Made by a program: the position numbers and the translations under genes. Under the pieces are notes generated by a model, which worked only from the letters and a program-made list of their open reading frames with translations, ran no database searches and was not told the DNA's origin. Shown here one piece after another: positions 23,245-62,085 of a stretch of DNA of 64,000 bases. This stretch comes from an uncultured virus (IMG/VR IMGVR_UViG_3300048780_000186) (taxonomy: Duplodnaviria; Heunggongvirae; Uroviricota; Caudoviricetes), in IMG/VR virus record IMGVR_UViG_3300048780_000186; one strand, 5' to 3'. Position 1 is the stretch's first letter. Every line of letters starts with the position of its first letter.

Positions 23245-23423
23245 TACACCTCCGGTTGGCCTTCCATATCGGAGCAAAGGGAACGTATGTCGAACGCCCA
23301 TTCCCAATACCCTGCACGGGTTTCACCAGCGGCAACCTCCCTTTGCCACTCAGCAAAGGGATGCTCTGGGTCTTCGTCGTTCCAATAGTCCTGGCCGTCA
23401 GGTGGCACGTTCGTTGATTGCAC
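23244..23423 (-). CDS. 59-aa hypothetical protein (HP..W..EV..TR..YWEW type)
   Basis: Translated by hand: VQSTNVPPDGQDYWNDEDPEHPFAEWQREVAAGETRAGYWEWAFD...; stop overlaps next ATG. Confidence 0.65.
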   Translation of the reverse strand: MQSTNVPPDGQDYWNDEDPEHPFAEWQREVAAGETRAGYWEWAFDIRSLCSDMEGQPEV

Positions 23424-23426
23424 GGT

Positions 23427-23861
23427 TTACGCCTCCGGCTCTTCGTCTCCGCCGCGGTAGAGATCGTCTCCGCCGTTTTCATCCACTTGCCGGGCAGCCT
23501 GCTCCAGCTGCGCACGGTTGACCTTCATGGCATTGCGCATGTCGCCTTCACTGAACGGGCATTCAAAGACAACTTCTCCGTTGTCGCGGAACGCCGCCCA
23601 CACGGGCTCCCTGTTAATTGGGTCCAGATGCTTGCCGGCTTCCTGCATCAGCTTGATGAAGCCGATCTCGGCCTCAGCCGTGGCGATCTGCCGGTTACGG
23701 TCGGCAATGGCCGACTGCCGGGCAGCGGCGACGGCCAGCTCGCGCTGCACCTGAACGCCTTCAAACCGCATTTCGAGATCGGACCGGACTTCCGGGTCCT
23801 GTATCTCGGATAACCGCAACCGCAAGGGCTTGAAAGCCCGGCGTCTGTTGTCTTGACTCAT
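23427..23861 (-). CDS. hypothetical protein
   Basis: 144 aa, ATGA coupling. Confidence 0.7.
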   Translation of the reverse strand: MSQDNRRRAFKPLRLRLSEIQDPEVRSDLEMRFEGVQVQRELAVAAARQSAIADRNRQIATAEAEIGFIKLMQEAGKHLDPINREPVWAAFRDNGEVVFECPFSEGDMRNAMKVNRAQLEQAARQVDENGGDDLYRGGDEEPEA

Positions 23862-24028
23862 AGTTTGTTCTCCAGATCCATCGCCAGATTGCGCGCCAGA
23901 TTCTCGTCAAATTGACTGTCAGGGTTGATGATCTCCAGGGCAGACTTGACCAGCCCGGCAGTCCTCTCATTCATGACAAGGACCAGCTGGTCGTTATGCT
24001 TGGCGATCGTGTAGTTCGCTTTGCTCAT
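23858..24028 (-). CDS. 56-aa hypothetical protein
   Basis: MSKANYTIAKHNDQLVLVMNERTAG...; ATGA overlaps at both ends. Confidence 0.6.
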   Translation of the reverse strand: MSKANYTIAKHNDQLVLVMNERTAGLVKSALEIINPDSQFDENLARNLAMDLENKL

Positions 24029-25425
24029 GCAGCCTCCTGCAACTGCGCCTGTTCGGCCTTCATCGCCGCGATCTTGTCAGCGAAGACTGCCATGACATGG
24101 TTGATTTCATCCGGCTTGCGAACCGGAGCAAACAACTCCTTCGGCTTCGGAAACTGTTGGGCATCAGAGCTGAATCGGCCGGTAGCAATGGTCGATTTGT
24201 CCTCGCCCCCGCTCTTACGGCCTTCCTCTTCTCCCGATCCCAACTGCTTGAAGCGAGGGTGCCATCTGTTGGTGTTGGGATTGATCCTGTCCACCATGTT
24301 CTTGCCATAGGTGGTCGTCATCTTCGTGACATTGGAGAACTCGGCCAACAGTTTGGCCAGCTTCCGTTGCCGCGGGGAGAAGTCCTTTTCGTTCTTCGAG
24401 ACTTCCTTCAGCGACTCACGCTTGATGTTGTCCAGATCAATGTCGATCTCGCGGAGGGCGGACAGCTTGTCTGCGTTCGACTTGAGGTTGAAGACGTAGG
24501 TCAGCTCAGGGATGAGCGTCTCGGCCAGGTCGCCTTGCTCACGCTTCTCTTCGCCGAAGACATTGAAGATCTCGTTGGCTACGTCGATCTCGTGTTGTTC
24601 CCAATACTCGATGATCTGGCGCATGATCGGCAGGCTCAGAGTGACGCCCTCGATCTCCATCTCCGCAGTTGGGTAGATGACATCGAACTCGTCTTGCGCC
24701 ACAGTGGTCAGCTGCCAATGCTTCAGCATCCTGGCCTGGTCGCGCATCAAAGGAAACATCAGAACGATGTCGCGGGCCGAGTAGTAGGCCATCTCGCGGG
24801 TCATCTTCCGGCCGTCATGATCCAGTGTGATGAAACTGTCACGGACGGCCTTGTTGATCAGCCAGAACGGCGCATGCCGGCGGCTGCAATCAGCCAGACC
24901 AACCTTCATGGCCAGCAGGCCAGCAACCAGGAGCTGCTCGGCCAGCATGGAACAGAAGATGCGCTGCATATGAATGCCGTATTTCACCAGCAGCCATTTG
25001 AAGTCGTAGATCGCGTTATGCAGCAGATGAAGAAAGCAGGCAGACTCCAACCACTCCTTGAACTCGACAACGAGTTCAGGCTGGATCAGATACACCATGT
25101 CCTCATTGCCGATCTGGAACAACACCATCCGTGTGTCCGGATTCACCGGATTCATCGAATAGTATTTGTCGCCCTTGACGACGCGACCTGTGGTTTCGGT
25201 GTCAATGCCGTGAACTGGAAGCTTGTTCAGGGTCCGTTTGATCTCCGCCAGATCGCCTGACGATGAAACAGGAATGATCTGATCGGAGTCCCATGCGCCC
25301 GGATCCCATGCTCCTTGCAACCAGTCATGTGTTCCCACGATCTTGTACGCCACTGGCACATGCATCTCCAATGGAGTACAGACTGGTCCTCTAGCACGGC
25401 CGCCAATGCGCGCTCCTTTTGCCAT
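24025..25425 (-). CDS. family A DNA polymerase, N-terminal 3'-5' exonuclease/thumb subunit
   Basis: GIDTETTG, HNAIYD, YSARD, FNLKS, TIATGRFSSDAQQFP. Confidence 0.9.
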   Translation of the reverse strand: MAKGARIGGRARGPVCTPLEMHVPVAYKIVGTHDWLQGAWDPGAWDSDQIIPVSSSGDLAEIKRTLNKLPVHGIDTETTGRVVKGDKYYSMNPVNPDTRMVLFQIGNEDMVYLIQPELVVEFKEWLESACFLHLLHNAIYDFKWLLVKYGIHMQRIFCSMLAEQLLVAGLLAMKVGLADCSRRHAPFWLINKAVRDSFITLDHDGRKMTREMAYYSARDIVLMFPLMRDQARMLKHWQLTTVAQDEFDVIYPTAEMEIEGVTLSLPIMRQIIEYWEQHEIDVANEIFNVFGEEKREQGDLAETLIPELTYVFNLKSNADKLSALREIDIDLDNIKRESLKEVSKNEKDFSPRQRKLAKLLAEFSNVTKMTTTYGKNMVDRINPNTNRWHPRFKQLGSGEEEGRKSGGEDKSTIATGRFSSDAQQFPKPKELFAPVRKPDEINHVMAVFADKIAAMKAEQAQLQEAA

Positions 25426-31646: not shown

Positions 31647-31858
31647 AGCACTCCTTTGAAAACAGGCGGATGCTTGAAACGCCGGCAAGCGCCTGACTCC
31701 CGATGAAGGTGTGCCTGGCCGGTGTACCGGCAACGCCAGCACACGCGGCGCCAGTCGGATGACTTGACGCCGCGCAGAAGCCACCACCAGAACTGGGAGT
31801 TGAACGGCCAGTGGTGGCGCTTGATGACCTTGTGGGGTTCCCAAAAGAGCTTAGGCAT
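31643..31858 (-). CDS. hypothetical protein
   Basis: 71 aa, coupled to neighbours. Confidence 0.5.
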   Translation of the reverse strand: MPKLFWEPHKVIKRHHWPFNSQFWWWLLRGVKSSDWRRVCWRCRYTGQAHLHRESGACRRFKHPPVFKGVL

Positions 31859-32945
31859 CGTCCTCGTCGGTCGTACTCTGCTTGAACTTCAGGGTGTCGT
31901 AGGCGTCGGCCGCATCCTTGTCTGCGCGCGGTCCCTTGTAGACCGGCTGGAAGAGCGAACCGCCCGGGAAGGCATAGAGGTATTCAACCTCCACGATGCT
32001 GCCGGCCTCGGGAACCTCATAGTTGGCCGGGATCGTGACATTGCCTACTGTTCTAACCCAGGTCGCATCCTGAACAAGGCCGACCTCGACTGAACGCTTG
32101 CCTTGGTTCTGCTGAATGACTTGACAGGTTGCCGAGCCCTTGAATTTGAACTTGAGCTGGTTGCCGCCGGAGTTCGGCCGGCCGGGCACGTACTTGGAGC
32201 CCAGCTTCTTGAAGACCACGCCTTCACCACGCTCGGCTTTGATCTTGTCGAAGAGGGCGCGTTTGGTCTCGGGCGTGTAAGCCGTCGTCAGGAACCCGAT
32301 CGCCGGCAAGGAGGTCGTCCCCAACAAGCCCTCCAACAGAGACCAGCGGTTCTCAACAGGCATGCCGGTCGTATCCTGGCCGCCATAACGGAGAACGTCG
32401 AAGGGCCAGTACACGTCGCCAATCGCTTCGCCGTCCAGGATGAAGTCAGCATCCTGCTTGGTGCGAAGACTCAGAACGCCTGCGGCGATGGACTGGGAAA
32501 CAGCAACGATCAAACCCTTGCGGTTGCCGCCGGTGATCTGGTCACAAACGCGCGTGACAAACTGGCGGACGCCGTCCTTTTTCTCCTGCATGAAGTAGTT
32601 CTCGCTGTCGAGCAGAAACTCCACCTGCTCTTCATCGACAGCGTTCAGGAGCTGCGGGATCAACCCGCTCTGCTGGCCAGCTAGCTCGCTGCCGGCGTAG
32701 GGCGTGCCCTCTTCGCCCTCGGAATAGCCTTTGCCCTTCTTCTCGGCTACGAGCTTGTCGTAGACCTTCTGTGCCGCGGCCAGGGCTACCGGCGTTACGG
32801 TCTTGCTTCCGCTGTTCAGCGTCGAACCCCGCCGACCGTACTGGAAATTGACAACATATCCGTTGTCTTTCTCCTCGATCTGGGCGTGGTAAACCTTGTC
32901 AGAGCTGCCGTCGCGGTACGCGAGGCTGATTGACCGTACACTCAT
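31851..32945 (-). CDS. WGR-domain ATP-dependent DNA ligase
   Basis: SDKVY...YGRRG...K..KGY; QEKKDGVR, LDGE, FDVL, EGVVFK, KFK. Confidence 0.9.
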   Translation of the reverse strand: MSVRSISLAYRDGSSDKVYHAQIEEKDNGYVVNFQYGRRGSTLNSGSKTVTPVALAAAQKVYDKLVAEKKGKGYSEGEEGTPYAGSELAGQQSGLIPQLLNAVDEEQVEFLLDSENYFMQEKKDGVRQFVTRVCDQITGGNRKGLIVAVSQSIAAGVLSLRTKQDADFILDGEAIGDVYWPFDVLRYGGQDTTGMPVENRWSLLEGLLGTTSLPAIGFLTTAYTPETKRALFDKIKAERGEGVVFKKLGSKYVPGRPNSGGNQLKFKFKGSATCQVIQQNQGKRSVEVGLVQDATWVRTVGNVTIPANYEVPEAGSIVEVEYLYAFPGGSLFQPVYKGPRADKDAADAYDTLKFKQSTTDEDDA

Positions 32946-34444: not shown

Positions 34445-34714
34445 TCATAGCTCGATCTCATAGTCGGCGCCCATCGAAACCAGGGAACCTTCTGACCATC
34501 TCTTCTGAAGGTCTTCAAAGCTGCTGAACTCAGGCTCGGAGAATGGATAGATCAGCTCGCCTCCGCCACCTTCCTTTTCGATCACGCCTGCTTTCTCAAG
34601 CGCATAGAGAAAGGCACTGACCCGCGTGAACTCTTCGAGTTCAAGTTCGACATCATCCAGGTACACCTGGTTGTTGTCCGAGTAGATGAACTCAATGCTG
34701 TACTTCATCTTCAT
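34445..34714 (-). CDS. acidic hypothetical protein
   Basis: 89 aa. Confidence 0.6.
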   Translation of the reverse strand: MKMKYSIEFIYSDNNQVYLDDVELELEEFTRVSAFLYALEKAGVIEKEGGGGELIYPFSEPEFSSFEDLQKRWSEGSLVSMGADYEIEL

Positions 34715-35748
34715 GACTTGTCCTCCCGCAGCCGGCGGAACTTGCCCATGCGAAGCGCCGCGCCATCCTTGGTCAGGTTCTGGTAATAAATCTCGGCCAC
34801 AAGGCCGACCAGCTCGCCCCGAAGGTGCTGTTTCCAGAGCCGGTCACGGTCCAGGTCGGAAACCTTCTTGCCCATGCCGACTTCGCATTCGATCATCTGT
34901 TCGCCGGGAACGCTGTCGCTGTCCCGATCCGGTGAGATGTTACCGTCATCGCAGAGATAGCCTCTGACCATCAGGTTGCCCAGGATGCCGGCGTGCTTGC
35001 CGCGGCCTTCCATGGCACCGATGATCTCCATATCGCCGTCGATGAACGGCTTCCACTTGAGCCAGACACCAGACTTTCGGAACTGGTATATGCCATCGAC
35101 ATCCTTGAGAACGATGCCTTCGTAGCCCTGTTCCAGATACAGGTCTGTCCAGTGCTTGATGGCTTCCGGGTTGTTCGGCGCCCGGTAGGCAACTACCTTG
35201 ATGATCTGCAAGTGATTGATGGCATCGGTCGCACAGTCCAGGGAGATCTTCCGGCTCTCTTGTGTTCGAGTGCAGGTCTTGCTCTCGAACTCAGAGGTCA
35301 GAATCGTGTCCCAGACATGGAAGTCAATGGCCAGACTGCGTTCATCGAAGTCATGCCGGCGAAGCAGGCCACTGGTGACATCAAATGCCTCAGGCTGGTC
35401 GATCCCATGGATCAGGAACTCACCATCGAAGGTGCGATTGTCAACCAAAGCTGGATAGAGGACGGCACTCTCTTCAAAGATCTTCAGGATGTGACCGACG
35501 TTGTAGTGCGGCAATCCTGTCGAGCTATAGGCAATCGCCTTTCCGTCCTTGACCACCACGATGCCACGGATGCCATCCAGTTTGGGCTCGAGGTACACCT
35601 CCCGGAACTTGGGTGGTTTCTTCGGGTCGTAGACCTTGCACAGCTGGATGCCCTCGCGCTTGCGGCGGACAACCACCGGGCCTTGAACAGTGATGATCTC
35701 GACTACCTGCTCGCCAGGCTCAAGCTCATCCCAAAGAAATGGGCTCAT
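34711..35748 (-). CDS. ATP-dependent DNA ligase
   Basis: EPKLDGIR, FDGE, VWD, GYEGIVLK, WLKWKP, OB-fold end FRRLREDK. Confidence 0.9.
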   Translation of the reverse strand: MSPFLWDELEPGEQVVEIITVQGPVVVRRKREGIQLCKVYDPKKPPKFREVYLEPKLDGIRGIVVVKDGKAIAYSSTGLPHYNVGHILKIFEESAVLYPALVDNRTFDGEFLIHGIDQPEAFDVTSGLLRRHDFDERSLAIDFHVWDTILTSEFESKTCTRTQESRKISLDCATDAINHLQIIKVVAYRAPNNPEAIKHWTDLYLEQGYEGIVLKDVDGIYQFRKSGVWLKWKPFIDGDMEIIGAMEGRGKHAGILGNLMVRGYLCDDGNISPDRDSDSVPGEQMIECEVGMGKKVSDLDRDRLWKQHLRGELVGLVAEIYYQNLTKDGAALRMGKFRRLREDKS

Positions 35749-35963
35749 CGTTGTTTCCTTTGCTGTAATTGTTTCGGTGGCCAATCAGAAGGCAGCTTGA
35801 ACTTGTGCTTTGGCCAGTCGATCCAGGGCACAAGAACACATGTCGTTTGCACCCAGGAACTGTGTAGCCGCCGCCGTGGGCGCTTGCAGATAGGCTGGCC
35901 ATCGAACTCGTTCCAATAGGCCCAGAACGTACGCCATAAATGAATCGGGTTGTAGATGCGCAT
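35745..35963 (-). CDS. small basic hypothetical protein
   Basis: AGGAG RBS; ATGA overlap with the ligase start. Confidence 0.5.
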   Translation of the reverse strand: MRIYNPIHLWRTFWAYWNEFDGQPICKRPRRRLHSSWVQTTCVLVPWIDWPKHKFKLPSDWPPKQLQQRKQR

Positions 35964-44859: not shown

Positions 44860-45480
44860 CTATACTGCTTCCTCAAGTGGCGGGCACTTGCAGTTGGTGA
44901 GACGTTCTTTACAGGAGCCACAGAGGGCATAGCCCTCGGGATCTACACGCAGGGGCCGGGATTCGGTCAAACGGCCGGCACGAAACAGTTGGCCGGCAGA
45001 GATGCCTCTGACCTTGGTTTTGACAGGCAGCGGCCCGAACATGTTGTCGATGATGGTGCCGTCGAGAGCGAGGTTGCAGAGATAATCGGCATCTCTGTTT
45101 TCTTCCCGCGGATACCACACGTACGAAATGACAATGCCTGAATAGAAAGCCAGGATTTCTCTAATCTGATGTTGAAGTGCTATCAGGTTCTCGTCCTTGC
45201 ATCTCCACTCTCTGGTCATCTGATTGACCAGGAGCTGGGAGTCCGCGCGGAACTCAATACGATCGACGTCGGATGTGAAGTCGAGCAACGGGTCCAGGCT
45301 GTTTACAGCCAGCAGCAGACCCCGGTACTCAGCAACGTTGTTGCTGCCGATCAGAGTCTCGTTCAGGCAGGCAACGTATTTGTGCTGCTCATCGAATGCG
45401 ACGAAGGCACAGGACGCTGGGCCCGGCTCGGTGGCTGAGTTTGAACGGCTGCCACCATCCGTGTAGATGATCAGCTTCAT
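44860..45480 (-). CDS. rnhA: ribonuclease HI family
   Basis: IYTDGGSRSN, SNNVAEY, ADSQLLVNQM, PREENRDADYL. Confidence 0.9.
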   Translation of the reverse strand: MKLIIYTDGGSRSNSATEPGPASCAFVAFDEQHKYVACLNETLIGSNNVAEYRGLLLAVNSLDPLLDFTSDVDRIEFRADSQLLVNQMTREWRCKDENLIALQHQIREILAFYSGIVISYVWYPREENRDADYLCNLALDGTIIDNMFGPLPVKTKVRGISAGQLFRAGRLTESRPLRVDPEGYALCGSCKERLTNCKCPPLEEAV

Positions 45481-45998
45481 GCCGCCAGTTTCCGTTCGTG
45501 GCGGCGGAACTGAATCGTCTTCTTCATCCACTTGTCGAGAATCATCTTCCGGTTCAGCTTACCTTGGTGATCGACGATCAAGATGCCGTTGAGATGGTCG
45601 ATCTCATGCTGAATGACTCGTGCTTCCAGGCCCTCGGCGACCATAGTGATCGGTTGAAAGTCTTCGGTCAGCCCGGTGACGGTGATCTCCGTTGGACGAG
45701 TAACCTTGACCTGCAGGCCGGGCAGGCTCAAGCAACCCTCCGCGGCCGCCGATGTTTCGGAACCGAACTCAATGATCTCGGGATTGGTCAGGGACTGCAT
45801 CTGTCCCTGGTTGTCCTGGTAGATGATGACCCGCTTCAAGACGCCGATCTGATTGGCGGCCAGGCCTTGTCCACCGAAGGAGTGGCAAGCTTCCTTCATG
45901 TCGCCGATCAGATTCGAGAGACCCTCGCCAAACTCAGCATCAACTGGTTCGCAGGTCTTGAGAATTACGCCGTCCGGATATTCGCAGATTGCGGTCAT
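45477..45998 (-). CDS. def: peptide deformylase
   Basis: GQGLAANQIG, EGCLS, QHEIDHLNG. Confidence 0.95.
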   Translation of the reverse strand: MTAICEYPDGVILKTCEPVDAEFGEGLSNLIGDMKEACHSFGGQGLAANQIGVLKRVIIYQDNQGQMQSLTNPEIIEFGSETSAAAEGCLSLPGLQVKVTRPTEITVTGLTEDFQPITMVAEGLEARVIQHEIDHLNGILIVDHQGKLNRKMILDKWMKKTIQFRRHERKLAA

Positions 45999-46970: not shown

Positions 46971-47588
46971 TCAGAAGGGGATGTCGTCGTCGATCAGGGC
47001 CTGCTGCGCGGGCTGGACAGCCGCAGGGGCGGATTGCCGCTGCTGTGTCTGCCGGGCTGCGGGAGCTGCCGCTTGTGTGCGGGGCGCCGCGGCCTGACGA
47101 GGAGCTGCCGTCTGACGCGGGGCCGGTTGCTGTGCGGGCGCAGCGGCCTGCTGATGGTTCCCGTTCCCGCCATTCCCGTTGCTGTTGCCGTTGTTTTCGC
47201 TCTTAGGCACCACACGGAACGGACCGGAGATGTCGCGCGCAACGCAGCGGAAGCCGACGGCCGCGTTGTCGATCACATTGCCGCTCTGCTTGTCCTTCTT
47301 CGAATAGGTCGTGAACTCCATCTCGCCATCGTTGATGACGATCGTGTCGCCGGGGCTGAACCGTTCGGCAACATACTGAGCCTGACGGCCGAATGCAACC
47401 ACGTTGACCCAAGTGGTCTTGTAGGCCGTGGTCTGATCCTGGCCGTTGTAGTTGCGGACGTCGCCCTTGCCTTCGCCGACCCACCGCTCGGTGGCGACGC
47501 CGACCTGCACCCAAGCCTTGTCGCCTTCACCCTGCAACTCCGGCTGCTTGCCAATCTTGCCATCGAAATGAACCTTGATTCCTGCCAT
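46971..47588 (-). CDS. ssb: single-stranded DNA-binding protein
   Basis: G.IG..PEL, TTWVNVVAFGRQA, C-terminal DDDIPF. Confidence 0.9.
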   Translation of the reverse strand: MAGIKVHFDGKIGKQPELQGEGDKAWVQVGVATERWVGEGKGDVRNYNGQDQTTAYKTTWVNVVAFGRQAQYVAERFSPGDTIVINDGEMEFTTYSKKDKQSGNVIDNAAVGFRCVARDISGPFRVVPKSENNGNSNGNGGNGNHQQAAAPAQQPAPRQTAAPRQAAAPRTQAAAPAARQTQQRQSAPAAVQPAQQALIDDDIPF

Positions 47589-47661
47589 GCTTCTCTTCCT
47601 CTTTCATCCAGCCATACGGCCGGGGATTCTCTTAGTTGACATCAATCTGAGCGAGTACAAA

Positions 47662-47715
47662 ACTAACCGTAAGGTAGCTCGCCAGACACCGGACTGCATT
47701 CGGGTAAAGCCCTTA
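47662..47715. promoter_or_regulatory. motif A (47662-47673) and motif B (47699-47715) upstream of ssb
   Basis: ACTAACCGTAAG; TTCGGGTAAAGCCCTTA. Confidence 0.5.
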
Positions 47716-47806
47716 GGCTTGCTCTGCAGGTAGAGGTGGCGCAACCAACCCGCGCTTCTCCCACTCCTGGCGGCAGACGGGATGATAGATCCACCACTTG
47801 GCTATC

Positions 47807-48634
47807 TCAGGCGGATCGTTCTCCTGAGCGTACTTGCGGAAATCGGCCTCTTCCGCCGGGTCGAGCTGGCGAAACAGAATCTCTTGCAGCATGTTTCCTC
47901 TTGCGTTCGCACTGGGTCACCGGTATAGGCGCCATCTGGCCGGTGGCGAGGTTGACGAAGCCTCCTTGATAGGAAACCTCGCGGTGCCTGAACAGCCGCG
48001 CCAGCAAAGCGAGCGCGTGATTGGCCAGCACCTGGTTCACAAAGGGCTCCTGTCGTTTCAACGCCTCGACGGAGCTGCAGGAGGGCAGCGTGTCCTCGCC
48101 GTCCAGTCTGGGATCGATGATCTCCGGGTAGAGTTCCGCGACCGTAAGCAGACGGTACTTGGCATGCTGATTGCGCCGGTTCCGGGGCTGGCCCAGAACG
48201 AACTGGCCGTTGTCGGCATTGTTCCCGATGTCCAGCCAGTAGAGCGTCTTCTTGAAGGCTGGAGACCGGCTGATGGCCAGCCTGGCCGCCCGCGTATCCA
48301 CACAGGTGATCAGGATGTCTACAACCCCATCTGTCTTCTCTGTGAAGTGCCCAGTGGAGGCGTTCCATTTCAGTCCCCAGAAGAGGTTCAGCCTGTTGGC
48401 AATAACCAGTGACTTGTACAGGCCGATCTCCGACTGGGAGAAAGGCTGCCTTACACAATTGGTGGAGGAGATGCGATCGCCATCAACGAAGATGACATTG
48501 AGACCTGGCTGTCCCTCGGCAAGGAGGGACTGGTTGATGTACGGCAAGCCGCCGGCCAGCGCACTACCTGTCCCTCCACATCCCACCACTGCGACGCGGG
48601 TCCGTGAGCATCTGTGATCCAGCTTGTGGTTCAA
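47807..48634 (-). CDS. PRTRC system ThiF-family (E1-like) protein
   Basis: VVGCGGTGS, DGDRISSTNCVRQ, ITCVDT, WLDIGN...GQFVLG, PSCS..EAL..Q; probable TTG start. Confidence 0.9.
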   Translation of the reverse strand: MNHKLDHRCSRTRVAVVGCGGTGSALAGGLPYINQSLLAEGQPGLNVIFVDGDRISSTNCVRQPFSQSEIGLYKSLVIANRLNLFWGLKWNASTGHFTEKTDGVVDILITCVDTRAARLAISRSPAFKKTLYWLDIGNNADNGQFVLGQPRNRRNQHAKYRLLTVAELYPEIIDPRLDGEDTLPSCSSVEALKRQEPFVNQVLANHALALLARLFRHREVSYQGGFVNLATGQMAPIPVTQCERKRKHAARDSVSPARPGGRGRFPQVRSGERSA

Positions 48635-48915
48635 GGGATTGCCACCGATCTCTTGACTCGCTTGTACTTGTTGCGAAGACGTAGCCTCTGCTTGTTGAAG
48701 ATTGTGATCGTCAACCGCGAGCCCATGTTCAGCAGAGAGAATTCCATCTTCTCGACCAGGGCGTAGTGAAGGCTCACCCCAGTCGTTAGATCGACCAGCG
48801 GATACTTGCCCGTGGTCTTGATGTAGAAGCTGCCTTTGCACTCCAGGATGGTTCCGATTTCAAAGTCCTGAAAGCGATAACGCAACCCAACGGTAACAGC
48901 GATTGTGTTCTTCAT
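48631..48915 (-). CDS. hypothetical protein inside PRTRC cassette
   Basis: Coupled at both ends. Confidence 0.6.
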   Translation of the reverse strand: MKNTIAVTVGLRYRFQDFEIGTILECKGSFYIKTTGKYPLVDLTTGVSLHYALVEKMEFSLLNMGSRLTITIFNKQRLRLRNKYKRVKRSVAIP

Positions 48916-49634
48916 TGGCATCCTTCAGTCAGCAAGTCACGAACTGTCTGTTTGGAGGAGTGCAGATACTCGATGCCGAAGGCTTCAGCGCCGGCCAGTT
49001 CCGTCCACAGCCCAAGGAAACCTCCGGGGTGCTTGGTAAGCACGCCAGCTCCGCTGGGATGGGTGAATTCGCTATCGAAGAAACCTTCTTCCCAGACTTC
49101 CAACGTGGACACGTCGGTGACCCTCGGCCGCTTCATGCTGCCGGAGCAGACACTTCCTCGACCGGGCTCGGTGTTCCAGTAGGGAGCCACGAAGAGTGGA
49201 TCTTCCGGATCAGGACGGTGATCCCCAGCCAGAGCGCGCAAGGATAAGCGGCCGCGGTTGACGATCCAGATCAAAGCCGGGTGAGGAAACACCTGGCCAT
49301 TCAGAGCTGCAGCCTCTTCCTTGTGGAAGAACATGGCCCGCTTTCTTGCCGGCGTCCACCAGACAATCGCGTTGGAGGTGCAGGCGATGACATTCGGCGG
49401 CAGGTAAACCAGGCCGGTCTTCTGCCCAAGAGTCTCCAGGAGTTCAGTCAACAACTCGATCGAGATGAGGCTGCCAGGGCCGACCTGCAGTTCCCCGTCC
49501 AGGCAAACCGGCGTGTGTTCAGTCAGGAATCCGGACTTGTCCTTCTCGGTTCCGCCAGCATAGTAGAGCAGCACCTTGTTCAGGGTGTACTCATGGCGCA
49601 TCCCAATGTTTACTTCGAGGTGCATTTCTCCCAC
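48912..49634 (-). CDS. PRTRC system protein B (prokaryotic E2 family D-like)
   Basis: IVWWTPARKR.MFF, PHPALI, APYWN...VCSGS, WEEGFF.SEFTH. Confidence 0.85.
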   Translation of the reverse strand: MGEMHLEVNIGMRHEYTLNKVLLYYAGGTEKDKSGFLTEHTPVCLDGELQVGPGSLISIELLTELLETLGQKTGLVYLPPNVIACTSNAIVWWTPARKRAMFFHKEEAAALNGQVFPHPALIWIVNRGRLSLRALAGDHRPDPEDPLFVAPYWNTEPGRGSVCSGSMKRPRVTDVSTLEVWEEGFFDSEFTHPSGAGVLTKHPGGFLGLWTELAGAEAFGIEYLHSSKQTVRDLLTEGCQ

Positions 49635-50716
49635 TCCTCAACTGTCATCACGCACTTGTTCAGAAGGCCGATCAGCTTGACCATCCGAGGCAGAGCTTCG
49701 AACAGCTGCGCGAATGCCTGGTAGTCATCAGGCCGATAACCCCGGACGATAGTTGGCGTCGGGTCACAGCCGCTGTTGTACAGGTCCTGCTGGTATTCAT
49801 CGATCCAGGCGGTGATGTTGTCCTTCCTGTCGACACCGAGGGCAAGACCGATCTGCGAAGCGCCGTCGTAATACCGGGCATTCCCGACGGAGTATTCCAG
49901 CTCGGGGATTGTCTTCGACAACTTGATCGTCTTGGAAAGCTTGTAGGCTTCCAAGCAGGTCAGGAAGAGTGCCTTGCATTCCTCATCGGGAATGGTGTCG
50001 AAGGCTGCTTTGATGCGACGCTCGGCGAACTTTAACCGGCTGGCTTCCTTGAGATACACCGGACAGTCATTGGGATCGGCGAGCTCCTCAGCCAGAGGCT
50101 CTTCCCCTTGCTCCCTCTCTTCAGCCAGGTAATCCTGACGTATTTCATATTCGGCTTTGGCTTCATTCAAAGAGAAAGGCATCGTCACGGCACAGGCTGC
50201 GCCATAGATCAGCCAGTAGAACGTCGCCATCAGCTTCTCGTACTCAGGAGCATTGCCCAGGCGTTGGACCACCGTATCCAGTGCCATGTATTGCATCGAC
50301 CCATTGGTCCAGGAGAAACACAAGTACAACGGTTCCTTCTTTGCCTTCCGCATCCACTCTTCACTGCTCAGCTCGAAGTGAATCTCAAACCCTTCTTCGC
50401 ACCAACAGGAAGCCAGCATGTCTTTCAGCGCCCGGATCAGAACTTCAACAACATCTTTGGCACCCTCGATGTGTTCATTCCTCACATAGCCTTTGTCCAC
50501 CAGAACTTCTAGCGGTTTGAGAGCCAGCTCCATATCGCGGCGAACCGTGTACTGGAACTGCACCCCGCGCAGACTTGGCAGGCGGAGAAAGTTGGCCGGC
50601 GCGATCAGACCAACGGATGGATCAGACTCGCGGCGGGAGTGAGCAGCTCTTTGTCTCGTTGACGCCTGTCGAACAGCACATGCAGAGCCTGCCCTATCTT
50701 TCGCGCGGATTCGCAT
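49610..50716 (-). CDS. PRTRC system protein F-like (start uncertain)
   Basis: Position between C and B; LPSL..V near N-terminus. Confidence 0.6.
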   Translation of the reverse strand: MRIRAKDRAGSACAVRQASTRQRAAHSRRESDPSVGLIAPANFLRLPSLRGVQFQYTVRRDMELALKPLEVLVDKGYVRNEHIEGAKDVVEVLIRALKDMLASCWCEEGFEIHFELSSEEWMRKAKKEPLYLCFSWTNGSMQYMALDTVVQRLGNAPEYEKLMATFYWLIYGAACAVTMPFSLNEAKAEYEIRQDYLAEEREQGEEPLAEELADPNDCPVYLKEASRLKFAERRIKAAFDTIPDEECKALFLTCLEAYKLSKTIKLSKTIPELEYSVGNARYYDGASQIGLALGVDRKDNITAWIDEYQQDLYNSGCDPTPTIVRGYRPDDYQAFAQLFEALPRMVKLIGLLNKCVMTVEEWEKCTSK

Positions 50717-50817
50717 TTCACAACCTCGCCAACAATGGCAATCGAAGCGGGATCACCCTGATCCGCAAACTCATTGAGCCTGCGGATCAAGGCAACCTTC
50801 TTTGATGATCTGGTCAA
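50605..50817 (-). CDS. small hypothetical protein between PRTRC C and F
   Basis: TTG start, KKVALIRRLNEFA...; overlaps the longest F reading. Confidence 0.4.
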   Translation of the reverse strand: MTRSSKKVALIRRLNEFADQGDPASIAIVGEVVKCESARKIGQALHVLFDRRQRDKELLTPAASLIHPLV

Positions 50818-50821
50818 CTGA

Positions 50822-51031
50822 CTACCCCTTGGCACCCACTGCCCGACCGAAGCGGAACCGCAGCTTGCCGTTGCGGGCCTCAGGGCCCACAACTGTTGCC
50901 GTGGTGATCTCGGGGTACTGCGGAGCGTACATCGCCCGCACCTGCTCGATGGTGAATTCCGGATTGGGGTCCGGCAACACTGCATCATCGAACACGAACT
51001 CCCGCGTCATTTTCTCGACTTTGACTGCCAT
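50822..51031 (-). CDS. PRTRC system protein C (ubiquitin-like)
   Basis: REF...LPDPNP...EQVR..YA..YPEITTA...GPE...GAKG. Confidence 0.9.
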   Translation of the reverse strand: MAVKVEKMTREFVFDDAVLPDPNPEFTIEQVRAMYAPQYPEITTATVVGPEARNGKLRFRFGRAVGAKG

Positions 51032-51618
51032 TATTCGGCCTCGCCTTCGTCGAATCCGTCTGGTAGTTCAGCGGGAAGTTCGCCGTCTTCTGCCGGCGGT
51101 GCCGCAGCGGGTTCCTCGGCGTGAACGGCGGCAGCGGCATTGGCATCGCCCGCGGCCTCCCAGAGTGTGAAGGTATCCGGGGCCTGGGCAGTACCAGCCG
51201 TTGTCTTGGTTGGATGAACGGCAGGCTTGCCTTCATCCTTCTTGTCGGCCTTCGCCGGCGTCACCTTGGTCTTGGCCTTCGCCGTTGCTTCCTTGGCTGA
51301 CTTGGCAACCTCGGCAAGCGTCTCCTGGAGTTCCTTCAGGCTTTCCAGAACGGTTGTGTGGCCGTCGGAGTAGCTGGCCAGCAATTGAGGCAGCTCAGCG
51401 TCGATCTCTTCGGGTGTGCCCACCAGGGATAGGGGTGTGATCAAGGCTGCAACATCTTCCTTTGTCACGCCTTCCTTCTGGGTCACGTCGCGGGTCAGCT
51501 GGCTGTCACTGTCGACCGCCTTGGGAATGACGTTGACCCTGATTTTGGTCTTGTCAACCGAAGCGATCGTAATCGTCACGGGCCGACTCTTCAGAATCGG
51601 CATCAGTTCTGTGAACAT
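51031..51618 (-). CDS. PRTRC system protein E
   Basis: MFTELMP...VNVIP...PLSLVGTPEEIDAEL. Confidence 0.85.
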   Translation of the reverse strand: MFTELMPILKSRPVTITIASVDKTKIRVNVIPKAVDSDSQLTRDVTQKEGVTKEDVAALITPLSLVGTPEEIDAELPQLLASYSDGHTTVLESLKELQETLAEVAKSAKEATAKAKTKVTPAKADKKDEGKPAVHPTKTTAGTAQAPDTFTLWEAAGDANAAAAVHAEEPAAAPPAEDGELPAELPDGFDEGEAE

Positions 51619-51651
51619 GGTTGTCCTCGCCCAATGGGCTGTTGATGTTGG

Positions 51652-52839
51652 CTATAGATCGGTTACACCGGAACGGTGGCCGCCAAGCTCAGTCCTGAAT
51701 CGGATCTGACCTTTGAATTCCTCCGGCCGGTTCCAATCGAACAGACACGGATCACTCAGGTTGTAAAAGGGATTGATTTCCAACAGCTTGACACCGTACT
51801 GGTTATAGCTGTCAGAAAGACTCCGCCGGCGCTTGATGAACACATCGAAGACTACTGAATCGAGATGAGAAGCATCTCGCAATTCCTTGTCAAAGAACTG
51901 CTCGATCGCCCACTTGATGCCGGCGGCGTCTTCGGTAATCTCCGAGTACACTCCGCGGTAGTAGTATTGGCTGATCCCGACGAGCTTGCGGTCCTGCATG
52001 AAGCAACGGAACTCTGACCACTCGGGCAGGTCCAGGCCCTCACGGATCCAAACACTGGGCGGGTAGTTCATGGCGATCTGCATATGCAGGTCGTCATAGA
52101 TGCGCTCGGAACAGCAGGTCAGGAGATCGAAAGCCATCTGGCCTGAGGTGATTTGGCCATTTGGCAACTGAGCGCCTTCGCCGAGGCCACATCCCCAGTA
52201 AAAAGCATCCTTCGGACTGCGCGAGCCAAGGCGGACAAAGATACCCTTTGGGAACTGCTGAACGGCCTTGTCCAGCCGCGCGATCAGGAGATCCTTTACC
52301 GTCTCGTGGTTCTCGGGCACACCCTCGGTAAATCCTTCGCCCAGCTCGATGATGTAGCTGCCCATGACGCGCGCTTCTTCCAGGGTCATCTGAACCCTTA
52401 CTGAGGGAACTGACAAGCTGTGCAAAGCGTTCGGCCAGCTCTCGATGTAGGTCGGCCATGACACATCCCAGATGGGTCCCTTGGGCTTGTATCTCTCCGA
52501 CTCGGGCTTCTTCAACCACTCTTCCCCGGCGGCTATACTTGCCTTCATCATGGCAAGAGAAAACTCATGGCGCTCTGGTGAACCAGGCGCGCCGAACTCT
52601 GCGAACCGATCTGTCGAGGGGTCGTAATCACTCATGTCAGGAATATCTTCCTGATGTGCAACGGCGCCGCCGGTACGGCCGCACCCTTCGCAAGAATGGC
52701 TGGTGTGGGATAAACAGCCGACATGGCTGCATGGTTCATCTGGCTCAAGCGCTGTCGCTGTGGTTAAACCAGCGATCCGCTCCTGCTCCCGCCACCATTC
52801 AGGGGGATGAGTGTGCTCATTCATCGTGGTGTCTGCCAT
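51652..52839 (-). CDS. Cdc123/R2K-like ATP-grasp protein
   Basis: FVRLGSRSPKDA, EFRCFM...GISQYY, VVFDV, LLEINPF..SDPCLFDW. Confidence 0.85.
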   Translation of the reverse strand: MADTTMNEHTHPPEWWREQERIAGLTTATALEPDEPCSHVGCLSHTSHSCEGCGRTGGAVAHQEDIPDMSDYDPSTDRFAEFGAPGSPERHEFSLAMMKASIAAGEEWLKKPESERYKPKGPIWDVSWPTYIESWPNALHSLSVPSVRVQMTLEEARVMGSYIIELGEGFTEGVPENHETVKDLLIARLDKAVQQFPKGIFVRLGSRSPKDAFYWGCGLGEGAQLPNGQITSGQMAFDLLTCCSERIYDDLHMQIAMNYPPSVWIREGLDLPEWSEFRCFMQDRKLVGISQYYYRGVYSEITEDAAGIKWAIEQFFDKELRDASHLDSVVFDVFIKRRRSLSDSYNQYGVKLLEINPFYNLSDPCLFDWNRPEEFKGQIRFRTELGGHRSGVTDL

Positions 52840-52852
52840 GTTTCTCCAAAGT

Positions 52853-52936
52853 TGGACGGCGGTTGGATTCGAACCCACGAAGGCTTGAGCCGGCAGTTTT
52901 GCAGATTGCCGCGTTTGACCACTTCGCTACCGCACG
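52853..52936 (-). tRNA. atypical tRNA-Cys(GCA) with long variable arm
   Basis: D arm GCGAAGTGGTCAAACGC, loop CTGCAAA, extra arm GGCTCAAGCC, GGTTCGAATCC, ends T-CCA; imperfect acceptor. Confidence 0.65.
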
Positions 52937-52942
52937 TTCGAG

Positions 52943-53122
52943 TTAGGCAACGCGATCCTCATTATTCAAGTGATACGTCTGAAACCCTAAAGGACCGAGA
53001 CCAAGCATATCCGTGGCAAAACCTTCTGCTTCTTCTCTGGATGAAAACCAACGCAGAACCAAAAGCATTGGCCCCTTCTTCCTACGGTCCAGCAGAATCC
53101 AGACATCTTCCAATTCAGCCAT
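52943..53122 (-). CDS. hypothetical protein
   Basis: 59 aa, FSSREEAE. Confidence 0.55.
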   Translation of the reverse strand: MAELEDVWILLDRRKKGPMLLVLRWFSSREEAEGFATDMLGLGPLGFQTYHLNNEDRVA

Positions 53123-53123
53123 G

Positions 53124-53717
53124 TCATGCAACCCTTTCGTTGTTGATGATGTGGTCGAACGGATCGAAGTCCGCTTCGGAAACAAAGGGCACATCACTAT
53201 TTGGTAGGACACTGATCGGTGACATCACAGGAAGTAACCGAACGGTGCCAGCGAGAGGCCGCTTCATTGTTGCCGGATCGATCCCGAACTGCTTCAGATA
53301 CGAGATGTCCAGAGTCCATTCATGCCGGCTGCGTTCCTCAAAGATCTCGAATGCCCTGGCAATATAGGCATCAGCAGTCGATTGTTGTGGCCACTGGTTC
53401 ACCTTCATCAGGTGAGCGCGGACTTCTTCGAACTCGCCATTCACACTGGCTAAGCCGATGTGCTTGACTTTGTGGCACATGGGACACAGAGCTATCAGCC
53501 TCACCAGAGTCTGGGTATGCGTCTTGTCGTCGTACAGCCAGACCTCATGGCACTCAACAGGCCAGCGACGGCCACGGCCGGCGCAGATCTCGCAGCGGTG
53601 CCGGGTCAGCTTCGAGGTTTGCTTCTTCAGAACTTCCCACACGGAAGGAGGGACGCTGGATCTCACATTCGAGAACCAGCAGGAGGCGGGCACAAGCTCG
53701 ATTGTCAGTCGCGGCAC
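53124..53717 (-). CDS. HNH-like endonuclease
   Basis: RCEICAG, ECHEVW, LIALCPMCHKVKH. Confidence 0.75.
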   Translation of the reverse strand: MPRLTIELVPASCWFSNVRSSVPPSVWEVLKKQTSKLTRHRCEICAGRGRRWPVECHEVWLYDDKTHTQTLVRLIALCPMCHKVKHIGLASVNGEFEEVRAHLMKVNQWPQQSTADAYIARAFEIFEERSRHEWTLDISYLKQFGIDPATMKRPLAGTVRLLPVMSPISVLPNSDVPFVSEADFDPFDHIINNERVA

Positions 53718-56623: not shown

Positions 56624-56815
56624 CTATTCCTGCTCCTCATCTTCTGAGTTGTCGTCTTCCTCTTCGATCTGAGCGGCAACCCATTCCCAATAGCTGCGTC
56701 GAGTGTTGTTCTCATTGACCTCTTGTTGCCAGTCAGTGACTGAATGTGTGGGATGTGAATTCCATTCCCCGTACTTTTCGGCAAGCTCCTCGGCGGACAG
56801 TTCTTTGTCAGGCAT
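56624..56815 (-). CDS. small acidic protein (HP..W..EV..TR..YWEW type)
   Basis: HPTHSVTDWQQEVNENNTRRSYWEW. Confidence 0.65.
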   Translation of the reverse strand: MPDKELSAEELAEKYGEWNSHPTHSVTDWQQEVNENNTRRSYWEWVAAQIEEEDDNSEDEEQE

Positions 56816-57422
56816 AAAGCTCCAGGTGACCGATTACGGCGTCTACATCGGCTTTGCAAACAGGCGTGGTGCAGATGGCAGTCAGGACAGTCTCTTCCGT
56901 TCCATAGAACGGGGGATTGCTGTCGTGGAATGATTGGACCCGATAACGGCAGTTGCCTTCGATTCCGGCGGTTCCCGTCAAGGAGTCCTGAACGAGGGCA
57001 TCCCGAATCATCTTCAGTTCCCGGCTGTTTCGCACGCTGAGCACGATCGTCGTGATTGGCTCAAGAATGGCTTCATCGCCGTTGTTAATGATCTCGCACC
57101 CACGCATGACCGATACGACATGGGCGCACTGCGCCATAAGGCGGCCGGGCTCCATAGGAATCGACCGCGGCGAACTGTCGGGCGGAGTGACCTGAACGGT
57201 TTTTGGAACGATCACATAGATCCGCTCTTCCGAGATCTCCTCAGCTTCAGTCCCTTCGTCCGCATTTGCCGGGGCCGGCACATCTATGTCCGTCACCTGA
57301 TGCTCGAACACGTAGTTGCTCTCGTGGATCGTATCGACCGCTTGCACCAGCAACTGCCGGGTTTCGCCCACATACGGCTTCTCAATGGTCACCTTCAAGG
57401 TGACCTCGCTGAACTCTCTCAT
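56808..57422 (-). CDS. peptidyl-tRNA hydrolase 2 (Pth2)-like protein
   Basis: MEPGRLMAQCAH, TIVLSVRNSREL, FHD...VLTAICTTP...VIGHLELY. Confidence 0.7.
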   Translation of the reverse strand: MREFSEVTLKVTIEKPYVGETRQLLVQAVDTIHESNYVFEHQVTDIDVPAPANADEGTEAEEISEERIYVIVPKTVQVTPPDSSPRSIPMEPGRLMAQCAHVVSVMRGCEIINNGDEAILEPITTIVLSVRNSRELKMIRDALVQDSLTGTAGIEGNCRYRVQSFHDSNPPFYGTEETVLTAICTTPVCKADVDAVIGHLELYA

Positions 57423-57519
57423 CGTTTCTCCGATACAACTGCATCCTATGGAATTGTTGGCTGGAATTGGATAGAGGAAAGCCCCTAAACGTACGAAGGG
57501 CGCCCGAAGGCGCCCCGGC

Positions 57520-57675
57520 TCACGACACATACCCTCGGTATCGAGGCTTGGTCGGTGCATTTTCTAAATCGGCCTTTGCCAGGCGTCGATTCAACTTGGC
57601 ATTGCGCCGCTTGTACGTCTTCCTGATCACTCGGCCCTTCACGGAAGAGTCGAGCTGTTCAATCTTCAGTTTCAT
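57520..57675 (-). CDS. 51-aa basic protein
   Basis: MKLKIEQ...KRRNAKLNRRLAKADLENAPTKPRYRGYVS; GAGG RBS. Confidence 0.55.
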   Translation of the reverse strand: MKLKIEQLDSSVKGRVIRKTYKRRNAKLNRRLAKADLENAPTKPRYRGYVS

Positions 57676-57693: not shown

Positions 57694-58317
57694 TCAGACA
57701 CTGACGGAGACCAGCTTGTGGCGAACCGCGTACATGACGAGTTGAACTTTGTTGTGGCACCCGATCTTCTCCATCAAGGTCGACTTATGCACTTCCACGG
57801 TCTTTGCGCTCAAACCGAGGAGGATGGAGATTTCCTTGACGCTGTTTCCCTCGGCGAGCATCTTTAGAACCTCATTCTGTCGAGGAGACAGCCGATGGAA
57901 GCCGGCAGAGTGTTCATGTCCGGTAAATCTGGGCTGAATGGAAAAGTGGGAATCGCCGCGATAGATCTTGGCAATCACTTTCTGCAGCTCATCGAAACCA
58001 CACGTCTTCGTCAGGTAGGCCGAGGCTCCAGCTTCGACTGCATTGAGGATATGCTCTTCTTCGGTTGATCCGGTAAGAAACATCACTTTCAGTGGAAAGT
58101 GAGAAGACTTGGCCCATCGAGCCGCTTCAAATGGATCGGCGCCTGGGATATTCACATCGAGGATGAGAACATCGACCTTCTGGTCGACAGCATGTTCTGC
58201 TGCCTCGCGCGCATCTCCATGATCCCCGATGATTCGGATCGTGGAAGTCTGTTCCATGATCTTGCACAGAATTTCACGGACCAGAACATGGTCGTCCGCC
58301 ATTACACATCGAATCAT
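57694..58317 (-). CDS. NarL/LuxR-family response regulator
   Basis: ADDH, LILDVNIP, FLT, YLTK; LSPRQNEVLKMLAEG...KTVEVHK. Confidence 0.92.
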   Translation of the reverse strand: MIRCVMADDHVLVREILCKIMEQTSTIRIIGDHGDAREAAEHAVDQKVDVLILDVNIPGADPFEAARWAKSSHFPLKVMFLTGSTEEEHILNAVEAGASAYLTKTCGFDELQKVIAKIYRGDSHFSIQPRFTGHEHSAGFHRLSPRQNEVLKMLAEGNSVKEISILLGLSAKTVEVHKSTLMEKIGCHNKVQLVMYAVRHKLVSVSV

Positions 58318-61443: not shown

Positions 61444-62085
61444 CTACTGGGGATCCCAGCCGATCTGTTCGATCACGTCGGTATCGTGATGCTCGTAACC
61501 GCGAAGCTCTGCCTGGCCGACCGTCACCGGGTCTTGTATGCCCATCGTGATTCGTTGGCACAGCCTGTGGGTCAAGACGATTCCGACAGCCACACTCAGA
61601 TTGAAGCAGTGGTAGGCCGGGATCTTGATGAACCGATGGCAGAGCGCGCGGTAGACCTGTGGAATGGAACCATCCTCGGGTCCGAAGAGGTAAACTCCCC
61701 GGTCGGGATGGATGAAGTCGTTCAGTGGTTCTGCGTTCTCTACGACCTCGATCGCCACCGGTGTAATCCCCGGTTCGAACAGGTCGAGAGGCTTATCGCT
61801 GGTGCCCCATTGAACATCGGCATACCCGCGCATGCGTTCTTCCCGCGGCAGCCGGTCATAGTCATGGGGATTGACCCGCTTTCCTGTCCACAGCAGATTG
61901 TCGATTCCCGTGCAGGAACAGGTGCGCAGGACACCACCAACATTGCGGACGTATTTCGGGTTCACCAGAACGACGCCGCTGCCTTGCAGCGGCAGCCGGG
62001 CGCCGTGCTGTAGGCAACGCCTGAGTACCTTCTTGCCTTCAAACAGACATCCGCATTTCTCAGCTCTCAGTGCGTCAGTTGCCAT
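61444..62085 (-). CDS. SpoU/TrmH-family RNA methyltransferase
   Basis: NPK...NVGGVLRT, LFGPEDGSI, FIKIP...CFNLSVAVGIVL. Confidence 0.85.
   Translation of the reverse strand: MATDALRAEKCGCLFEGKKVLRRCLQHGARLPLQGSGVVLVNPKYVRNVGGVLRTCSCTGIDNLLWTGKRVNPHDYDRLPREERMRGYADVQWGTSDKPLDLFEPGITPVAIEVVENAEPLNDFIHPDRGVYLFGPEDGSIPQVYRALCHRFIKIPAYHCFNLSVAVGIVLTHRLCQRITMGIQDPVTVGQAELRGYEHHDTDVIEQIGWDPQ

Follow-up and report, generated by a model that had tools for sequence, protein, structure and literature searches.

The window analysed here, a stretch of 64,000 nucleotides (nt) of the uncultured virus record IMGVR_UViG_3300048780_000186 (IMG/VR), carries on its minus strand a run of open reading frames (ORFs), 47807-52878, that contains a PRTRC cassette: genes for a ubiquitin-like protein (Ubl) together with E1-like and E2-like partners. 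Five ORFs of the run were named by curated models, namely an ATP-grasp protein and the PRTRC proteins E, C, B and ThiF, and the order along the minus strand is D123/Cdc123-type ATP-grasp, E, C, a 70-amino-acid (aa) ORF, F, B, a 94-aa ORF and ThiF. The original prediction, made from the sequence letters, had described a phage-borne Ubl/E2/E1 cassette of PRTRC type. Inspection of ORFs and start codons showed that its coordinates, gene order, 33-nt spacer between the ATP-grasp stop and the E start, and GAKG ending of C were all correct, and the cassette itself was borne out by the curated models for E, C, B and ThiF.

Protein E (195 aa, 51031..51618, minus strand like the whole run) scored 63.2 bits against TIGR03741 (cut-off 37.95) and 24.8 bits against Pfam PRTRC_E, slightly below the cut-off of 26; its C-terminus is acidic and rich in Ala, Pro and Glu. 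The ubiquitin-like protein C (69 aa, 50822..51031, minus) matched TIGR03738 (80.4 bits, cut-off 45.95) and Pfam Prok_Ub (2.8e-24). It is tail-less and terminates exactly at the glycine of the conserved ...RAVGAKG, whereas in the alignment C is extended beyond ...RAVGxKG by a 62-aa tail in phages Dina and BgVeeders33. These two phages (Ralstonia phage Dina, NC_055026, gp07-gp02, and Burkholderia phage BgVeeders33) represent the cassettes that we call type-1 (type 6d). The E2-like protein B (237 aa, 48912..49625, minus) matched TIGR03737 (156.7 bits, cut-off 131.45) and Pfam Prok-E2_D (1.1e-36). It possesses Cys160 and a downstream His189, both invariant in the family (58/58 alignment rows), and retains 18 of the 19 columns conserved at >= 93%; the account of B by Iyer et al. 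2006 (PMC1779556) likewise has a conserved Cys and downstream His. The ThiF-family E1-like adenylating enzyme (275 aa, TTG start, 47807..48634, minus) scored 237.2 bits against TIGR03736 (cut-off 144.75) and retains 43/52 columns conserved at >= 93%, including the GxGGxGS loop, DxD, R/Q, K, CxD and PSC. Its final ~35 residues lie past the TIGR03736 match, and a 59-aa ORF of protein-like composition (47713-47892, minus) overlaps its last 86 nt in another frame. No PHROGs family was matched by any cassette gene or by the ATP-grasp.

The genes from E to ThiF form a seven-gene operon whose members are all linked by translational coupling or come close to it. The stop of E and the start of C share 1 nt; the 70-aa ORF opens with a TTG 4 nt downstream of the C stop, and its TGA overlaps the CTG at 50608 (CTGA). 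F and B overlap, as do the B stop and the ATG of the 94-aa ORF (ATGA) and, in turn, the stop of the latter and the TTG start of ThiF (TTGA). None of the seven ORFs is disrupted in the window or in the relatives L178, L179, L181 and L184. Selection was tested on codons changed relative to L184, a relative at 80-93% identity: the changes were synonymous in 19/21 codons of C, 87/107 of ThiF, 81/117 of B, 93/149 of F, 23/39 of the 94-aa ORF and 15/28 of the small ORF. Short metatranscriptome contigs (four runs, each from a different study) match parts of the cassette at 95-100% identity and fill 21 to 30 of 30 bins; run X1 covers all 30, and the parts uncovered in runs X2-X4 are not evidence of absence. 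As DNA carry-over is possible in RNA libraries, we take these contigs as weak evidence of expression. A promoter/terminator scan of 47300-53300 returned fewer sites than shuffled controls.

Protein F, which is mostly alpha-helical, is encoded at 49610..50608 (minus, 332 aa if it starts at CTG 50608). TIGR03742 did not match it even at E <= 10, while the control F proteins of Dina and BgVeeders33 were found at 1.4e-105 and 8.3e-30. Profile-profile comparison by hhalign recovered the relationship: the window F family aligned with 26 type-1 F proteins at a probability of 95.3% (E 2.2e-8, 266 columns), which supports its assignment as a very divergent PRTRC_F. The same comparison with 31 F-position proteins of Bacteroidota gave a probability of 0.8%. 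Only five homologues, at 58-98% identity, were found in 5.8 billion clusters, and a hidden Markov model (HMM) of the window F family matched only the window lineage among the surveyed loci described below, even at E <= 10. The AlphaFold2 (AF2) model is mostly helical at a mean predicted local distance difference test score (pLDDT) of 71.8, and its fold search gave no informative match (best Z 4.0). A divergent helical F fits Iyer et al. 2006 (PMC1779556), where the fifth component of type 6d is a 'rapidly diverging alpha-helical protein'.

The start of F was examined together with the small ORF that precedes it. Gene callers place the start at ATG 50716 (368 aa), and the first ATG inside the conserved part is ATG 50533. 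In the 108-nt overlap between this longer F frame and the small ORF, changes relative to L184 were synonymous in 0/14 changed codons of the F frame and in 9/16 of the small-ORF frame. From the CTG on, over F codons 37-61, the F frame has 8/9 synonymous changes and the other two frames have none. Residue 37 of the 368-aa frame is also where the profile alignment sets in, with the LxLPxL motif found at the N-terminus of the type-1 F family. Because the codon-change pattern switches there and the profile alignment begins there, F probably starts at CTG 50608 and is 332 aa long; reinitiation coupled to the small-ORF stop is equally compatible with these data. By the same codon-change pattern the small ORF (70 aa, TTG start, 50605..50817, minus) is real, as the original prediction had it. 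The label F given in that prediction stood in so far as profile-profile comparison recognises the protein and failed in that the curated model does not.

The small ORF had no family match in Pfam, NCBIfam or PHROGs. It ends in the peptide ...TPAASLIHPLV. In type-1 cassettes a peptide that overlaps the F start with its stop, encoded either as a separate 60-89-aa ORF or as a fused tail of C, has the ending ...LPxSxxPVLP or ...SLQVLA. Judging by position and this short motif only, the small ORF is probably the counterpart of the type-1 small-ORF/C-tail module.

Between B and ThiF, type-1 cassettes carry the gene of protein A (JAB-N plus JAB), which the window lacks. We looked for it in G000, the window's own 124-kb IMG/VR record (provirus flag, CheckV completeness 58%), and in G001, a near-identical 178-kb record (CheckV completeness 83%). 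TIGR03735 (A), PF14464 (Prok-JAB) and PF01398 (JAB) had no match in either of these two incomplete records. The TIGR03735 controls were positive (Dina 271 bits, BgVeeders33 224.7 bits, and also genome G006), and PF14464 matched in both phages. PRTRC ParB was likewise missing: TIGR03734 had no match in G000, on which alone it was run, and PF02195 (ParB_N) had none in G000, G001 and G002 as against 5 in the control G006. Elsewhere in G000 ORFans predominate, and neither a JAB nor a ParB is among the genes. Protein D (TIGR03739) was matched neither in G000 and G001 nor in phages Dina and BgVeeders33, the best control, 54.4 bits in G006, being below the cut-off. Thus no A or ParB is detectable in G000/G001, in line with the original prediction, which had also treated the lack of a JAB as unusual.

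This last point was not sustained by a survey of 80 bacterial and 73 viral loci anchored on relatives of B. Annotated phage genes served to build HMMs for A, B, C, E, F and ThiF, which were then iterated over every ORF at these loci. After removal of repeat entries of the window lineage and of loci (mostly at contig ends) where no ThiF lay within 3 kb of B, 151 were left. A was scored as present upon an A-HMM match or a B-to-ThiF gap > 500 nt. A accompanied a tailed C in 56 loci and a tail-less C in 4. A was absent together with the C tail in 85 loci, the window included, and in 6 further loci without A no C was seen; a tailed C without A occurred in 0/151. In every one of the 85 JAB-less loci the Ubl ends at the GxKG glycine, and all Bacteroidota-type loci are without A. 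TIGR03735 was also absent from three Bacteroidota genomes and from one 94%-complete viral record holding such cassettes, the control G006 being positive.

Loss of A is therefore common in the family and tied to a Ubl made in mature form, and the lack of a JAB in the window is explained by its pre-matured Ubl. Since A goes with a tailed C and its absence with a tail-less C, the simplest reading would be that the necessary job of A is precursor processing. This gives a testable rule: cassettes with a tailed Ubl keep the JAB, cassettes with a glycine-ending Ubl have lost it. The rule assigns precursor processing to the JAB and predicts that tagging by JAB-less cassettes would be irreversible.

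PRTRC operons have been catalogued, as type 6d, since 2006 (Iyer et al., PMC1779556). We placed the window among them with a tree of concatenated B and ThiF (58 rows dereplicated at 90% identity, 492 columns, IQ-TREE quick search, LG+G4). The deepest split separated all 26 A-bearing rows plus the window from 31 Bacteroidota-type rows, with a value of 100 on both sides in the approximate likelihood ratio test SH-aLRT. On these sequence grounds we classify the window cassette as a deep-branching JAB-less member of PRTRC, operon type 6d of Iyer et al. 2006. What is new is a third, deep PRTRC lineage, distinguished by its F, by the splitting of the tail module and by the accessory 94-aa gene, along with the JAB/tail rule.

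Type-1 cassettes resemble that of the window in the order E, C, (small ORF), F, B, ThiF and in the helical, rapidly diverging F; E, C, B and ThiF of the window match the same curated models, and the window falls on the type-1 side of the tree. They differ from it by protein A, by a 62-100-aa tail on C, by the absence of the 94-aa ORF that occupies the A slot in the window, and by an F visible to TIGR03742. They also reside in temperate phages of 33-60 kb, plasmids or integrative and conjugative elements, whereas the host of the window cassette is a ~200-kb phage. Finally, the window has no ParB, the gene directly upstream of E in L025. At one type-1 viral locus (L111:4730-5911, plus strand) the gene directly upstream of E encodes an RtcB RNA ligase (Pfam 1.3e-126), neither ParB nor a clamp.

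The Bacteroidota-type cassette comprises five genes (E, a 73-aa C, an ORF of ~365 aa, B and ThiF) and is found on Bacteroidales chromosomes and elements as well as on many IMG/VR contigs. Like the window cassette it is JAB-less, its Ubl ends exactly at GxKG, and many of the viral contigs place it in replication modules. Unlike it, it lies on the other side of the deepest split, its B and ThiF overlap directly by 4 nt without an intervening ORF, its F-position protein has no profile similarity to the window F, and its proteins share 25-40% identity with those of the window.

The slot held by the JAB gene in type-1 cassettes is occupied in the window by the lineage-specific 94-aa ORF (48631..48915, minus), overlapped with B and with ThiF. 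We found four true homologues among 1.84 billion representatives, at 33-79% identity; two further hits, P0130 (2026 aa) and P0131 (481 aa), were spurious, these being repeat proteins (a YadA stalk and a low-complexity repeat, respectively). Neither Pfam (E <= 1) nor NCBIfam (E <= 10), PHROGs or PADLOC gave a family match, and an HMM of the 94-aa family matched only the window lineage at the surveyed loci, even at E <= 10. The AF2 model (pLDDT 65.4) predicts a small all-beta protein. With VIA the best hit reached Z 4.2 (root-mean-square deviation, rmsd, 2.3 over 55 residues); it pointed to SH3-like, Tudor and FeoA domains, which does not suffice to assign a fold. Foldseek returned nothing at E <= 0.001, and the best score in the ESM Atlas, 0.84, was to unnamed clusters, a lead at most. 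A predicted complex of ThiF, B and the 94-aa protein scored 0.00 and 0.00, which is evidence neither way.

The original prediction had left room for the 94-aa ORF being a JAB. By sequence and profile comparison this was rejected: hhalign against 64 A-family ORFs gave a probability of 0.1%, BLASTP against the A of Dina gave E 9.3, and the curated JAB models did not match. The 94-aa protein might instead replace the JAB without homology, as another deconjugase or as a regulatory subunit that binds the Ubl or E1/E2 from the same slot. The ORF stands exactly at the type-1 A position, translationally coupled on both sides. With 23/39 changed codons synonymous it is under purifying selection, and it is conserved in this way in relatives at 82% identity. 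An unrelated 93-aa ORF also fills the B-ThiF slot of L173. But no metal-binding or peptidase motif was seen in the protein, and C needs no trimming, so no replacement protease would be required. Moreover, the ORF is exactly missing in L180, where its ATG is joined to ThiF codon 2, and a contig of RNA run X4, which joins 48629 to 48911, has the same deletion. We therefore hold a replacement of the JAB to be improbable and describe the 94-aa protein as a lineage-specific accessory.

The ORF of L173 (8578-8859, plus strand, 93 aa) lies between B and ThiF of a Bacteroidota-type cassette on a 70-kb viral contig. As a homologue of the 94-aa ORF it was discarded (hhalign probability 0.5%) and is a positional analogue only; the two share just a basic C-terminal stretch resembling ...LRIRF/LRLRN.

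Taken together, these features make it rather likely, in our judgement, that the JAB-less PRTRC operon performs irreversible Ubl conjugation to protein targets. C would be translated already ending in its reactive glycine and, because it is made so, ThiF would need no trimming step before adenylating it. The tag would then pass as a thioester to the cysteine of the E2-like B, which would attach it to target proteins, with F and E possibly acting as specificity or docking factors. The cassette itself, lacking a JAB, would not reverse the tagging. Replication or DNA-associated proteins are our best guess for the targets. A thioester relay, protein conjugation and irreversibility are what we infer from this gene set.

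Bacterial E1/E2 relatives capable of real conjugation are known from type II CBASS (Cap2/Cap3), Bil and Bub (PMC11601603). These systems share with the window cassette an E1-like and an E2-like protein and a Ubl, with the logic of an activated C-terminal glycine. They differ in belonging to other families and in being host defence operons with a peptidase, whereas the window cassette is phage-borne and peptidase-less. PADLOC gave weak partial E1-E2 matches to ThiF residues 5-88 (best E 2.7e-5); B, C, E and F were without a match, and the defence E1-E2 model NF058523 reached 19.2 bits against a cut-off of 320.

ThiF-family enzymes and Gly-ending beta-grasp proteins also serve sulfur transfer, an established role (reviewed in PMC1779556). 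C could accordingly be a sulfur carrier of the ThiS/MoaD kind, or ThiF could adenylate C for some other chemistry, with no protein conjugation at all. The window ThiF does match thiamine ThiF models, but weakly and in all cases far under the cut-offs. No sulfur-transfer or cofactor gene lies nearby, and an E2-like protein whose Cys and His are fixed throughout the family argues for conjugation. The pairing of JAB protease and tailed Ubl precursor in type-1 cassettes likewise fits processing and conjugation, not cofactor synthesis. We regard a pathway without conjugation as quite improbable.

Concerning the targets, a lead came from the surroundings and C-termini of E. The gene directly upstream of E encodes a DnaN clamp in 8/8 Bacteroidota-type viral loci examined (L159, L165, L167, L168, L169, L170, L172 and L176). 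In 7/8 of these the E protein ends in peptides such as QTSLF, PTLFD or PDLF, and in 20/21 type-1 rows it ends in ...[GAT][VLI][DE][LMI][LFYMP], for example GVDLL, GLDLF or AIDIF. Both kinds of peptide resemble the clamp-binding pentapeptide. PRTRC cassettes could then be tagging systems aimed at the replisome, with E docked on the sliding clamp, and the counterpart on mobile elements of PCNA ubiquitylation; we consider this unlikely. If it were true, the cassette of the window would be a form of such a system that tags irreversibly, has no protease and brings its own 94-aa subunit; set in the replication module of a jumbo-type phage, it would tag phage or host replication proteins.

Several observations weigh against irreversible conjugation by the window cassette or against parts of it. 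Full-text literature searches found no experimental study of any PRTRC cassette, and the papers listed for 'PRTRC' are, by their titles and abstract openings, genome or transcriptome reports; broader searches on Ubl pathways led to Iyer et al. 2006 and to studies of CBASS, Bil and Bub. Host deconjugases could act on the tag. The two records being 58% and 83% complete, a JAB could lie in the missing part. In the tree the window sits on a long branch (1.46) whose basal placement is uncertain, so that a single loss of A is compatible with the topology. The guess of a replisome target is weakest for this very cassette, E of the window having an acidic tail instead of the clamp-like C-terminal motif. 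Lastly L180, in which E is truncated to residues 130-195 and the 94-aa ORF deleted, may be a decaying copy and shows that the cassette can decay.

From L180, and from the far divergence of F and the small ORF from curated models, one might suppose that the window cassette too is a decaying remnant, no longer working after loss of its protease. But the seven ORFs are intact in the window and in four relatives, synonymous changes dominate relative to L184, and the catalytic residues are retained. The tail-less Ubl is moreover a coherent compensating state, common to the 85 JAB-less loci. Decay of the window copy is thus very improbable, and the operon is real, intact and, as far as sequence comparison can tell, probably functional. 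The corrected gene models (probable CTG-start F, real 70-aa ORF) are needed by anyone expressing the operon.

Upstream of E lies the ATP-grasp protein of the D123/Cdc123 type (R2K clade; 395 aa, 51652..52839, minus), with 77.9 bits against Pfam D123 (cut-off 24, 1e-21) and a weak R2K_2 match of 16.9 bits. Among the 519 homologues found, most are 250-300 aa long, and 20 invariant columns are shared by the window protein and 36 homologues. R2K-clade ATP-grasps (Cdc123/D123) are sporadic stand-alone genes of jumbo phages, thought to modify host proteins, according to section 3.4.4 of PMC7824862 and to PMC4431377. The protein of the window resembles the set in matching D123, the set being ~250-400 aa and encoded on long viral contigs, and differs in an additional Cys-rich N-terminal region of ~125 aa, which it has in common with L006.

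In the original prediction this gene had been offered as a second peptide ligase, possibly coupled to the Ubl pathway. We observed no conserved linkage. The syntenic relative L006 (214 kb, 99% complete, 43-55% protein identity) has HNH, ATP-grasp, SSB and the same five downstream genes and lacks PRTRC altogether. Conversely, in L183, L184 and L185, i.e. 3/3 relatives at 80-85% identity that include the upstream side, HNH is followed directly by E, and PRTRC occurs without the ATP-grasp. Both are present in L178, L179 and L181 (96-100% identity). By tblastn, 10 other D123-bearing viral loci contained no PRTRC genes, and at no other PRTRC_B-anchored locus surveyed was a D123 ATP-grasp found within 8 kb. 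Single-protein scans (viral contigs with B and with the ATP-grasp, GenBank phages with the ATP-grasp) recovered only a near-identical relative, or nothing.

A single system of ATP-grasp and PRTRC is thus almost certainly not what we see: the shared strand and the mere 33 nt before E in the window and near-identical relatives speak for it, as does the longest contig of 35,412 bases listed both for P0002 (a 66%-identical ATP-grasp) and for P0125 (a 58%-identical F), which may be one contig, but each partner occurs without the other in close or syntenic relatives, neither co-occurrence check joins them, and such ATP-grasps are already described as stand-alone genes (PMC7824862, PMC4431377). The ATP-grasp is an independent phage gene, the cassette's neighbour only, and its link to the cassette is coincidental; a tempting but wrong connection between Ubl conjugation and an R2K peptide ligase is thereby removed. 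As the relatives of this one phage lineage vary in the ATP-grasp, in the whole cassette and in the 94-aa ORF, the lineage offers a natural experiment in which gene presence and absence separate members of the system from bystanders.

The cassette is a gene block placed between the HNH/ATP-grasp pair and SSB. The HNH endonuclease (53124..53717, minus; phrog_5200, 1.2e-47) lies directly upstream of the variable slot, outside the cassette; it adjoins the ATP-grasp in the window and E in L184. At the other insertion edge, directly downstream, stands the phage SSB (46971..47588, minus), which matched Pfam SSB and TIGR00621. The slot beside HNH, with the ATP-grasp and the PRTRC block variably present among relatives, looks like a hot spot of gene gain and loss; being bordered by HNH, it may be a homing-endonuclease hot spot.

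As a whole, the window is a replication module; the phage is large, at roughly 200 kb. It encodes a primase, a RecA-like protein, an AAA ATPase, helicases, a split family-A polymerase (Pol A), a thymidylate kinase, a class II ribonucleotide reductase (RNR), two ligase-like genes, a clamp loader, a beta clamp, Rad52, RecD2 and RNase H, and in the same module a peptide deformylase and SSB.

Some further features of the record were observed. The family-A DNA polymerase is split over 22294-25425 (minus): the ORF at 24025-25425 encodes the 3'-5' exonuclease together with the first part of the polymerase domain, the remainder lies in the ORF at 22294-23307, and small ORFs (23427-24028) separate the halves. 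Two ORFs with ATP-dependent DNA-ligase domains, 31851-32945 and 34711-35784 (minus), the first with an N-terminal WGR domain, are joined by a third ligase-OB match elsewhere in the record (L190:10651-12315). Two auxiliary genes relate to translation (45477-45998 and 56808-57560, minus): a peptide deformylase that passes curated cut-offs and a weakly scoring PTH2-like peptidyl-tRNA hydrolase domain. Host-like genes comprise a LuxR-type response regulator, a SpoU methylase, a PAS-GGDEF diguanylate cyclase and a Cpn10/GroES homologue, at window positions 57694-58317 and 61444-62085 (minus) and at L189:6188-7357 (plus) and L189:9162-9500 (minus). Finally, an identical stretch was found in the 452-kb metagenome contig L178; the element, flagged as a provirus in IMG/VR, may be integrated or may be a very large phage.

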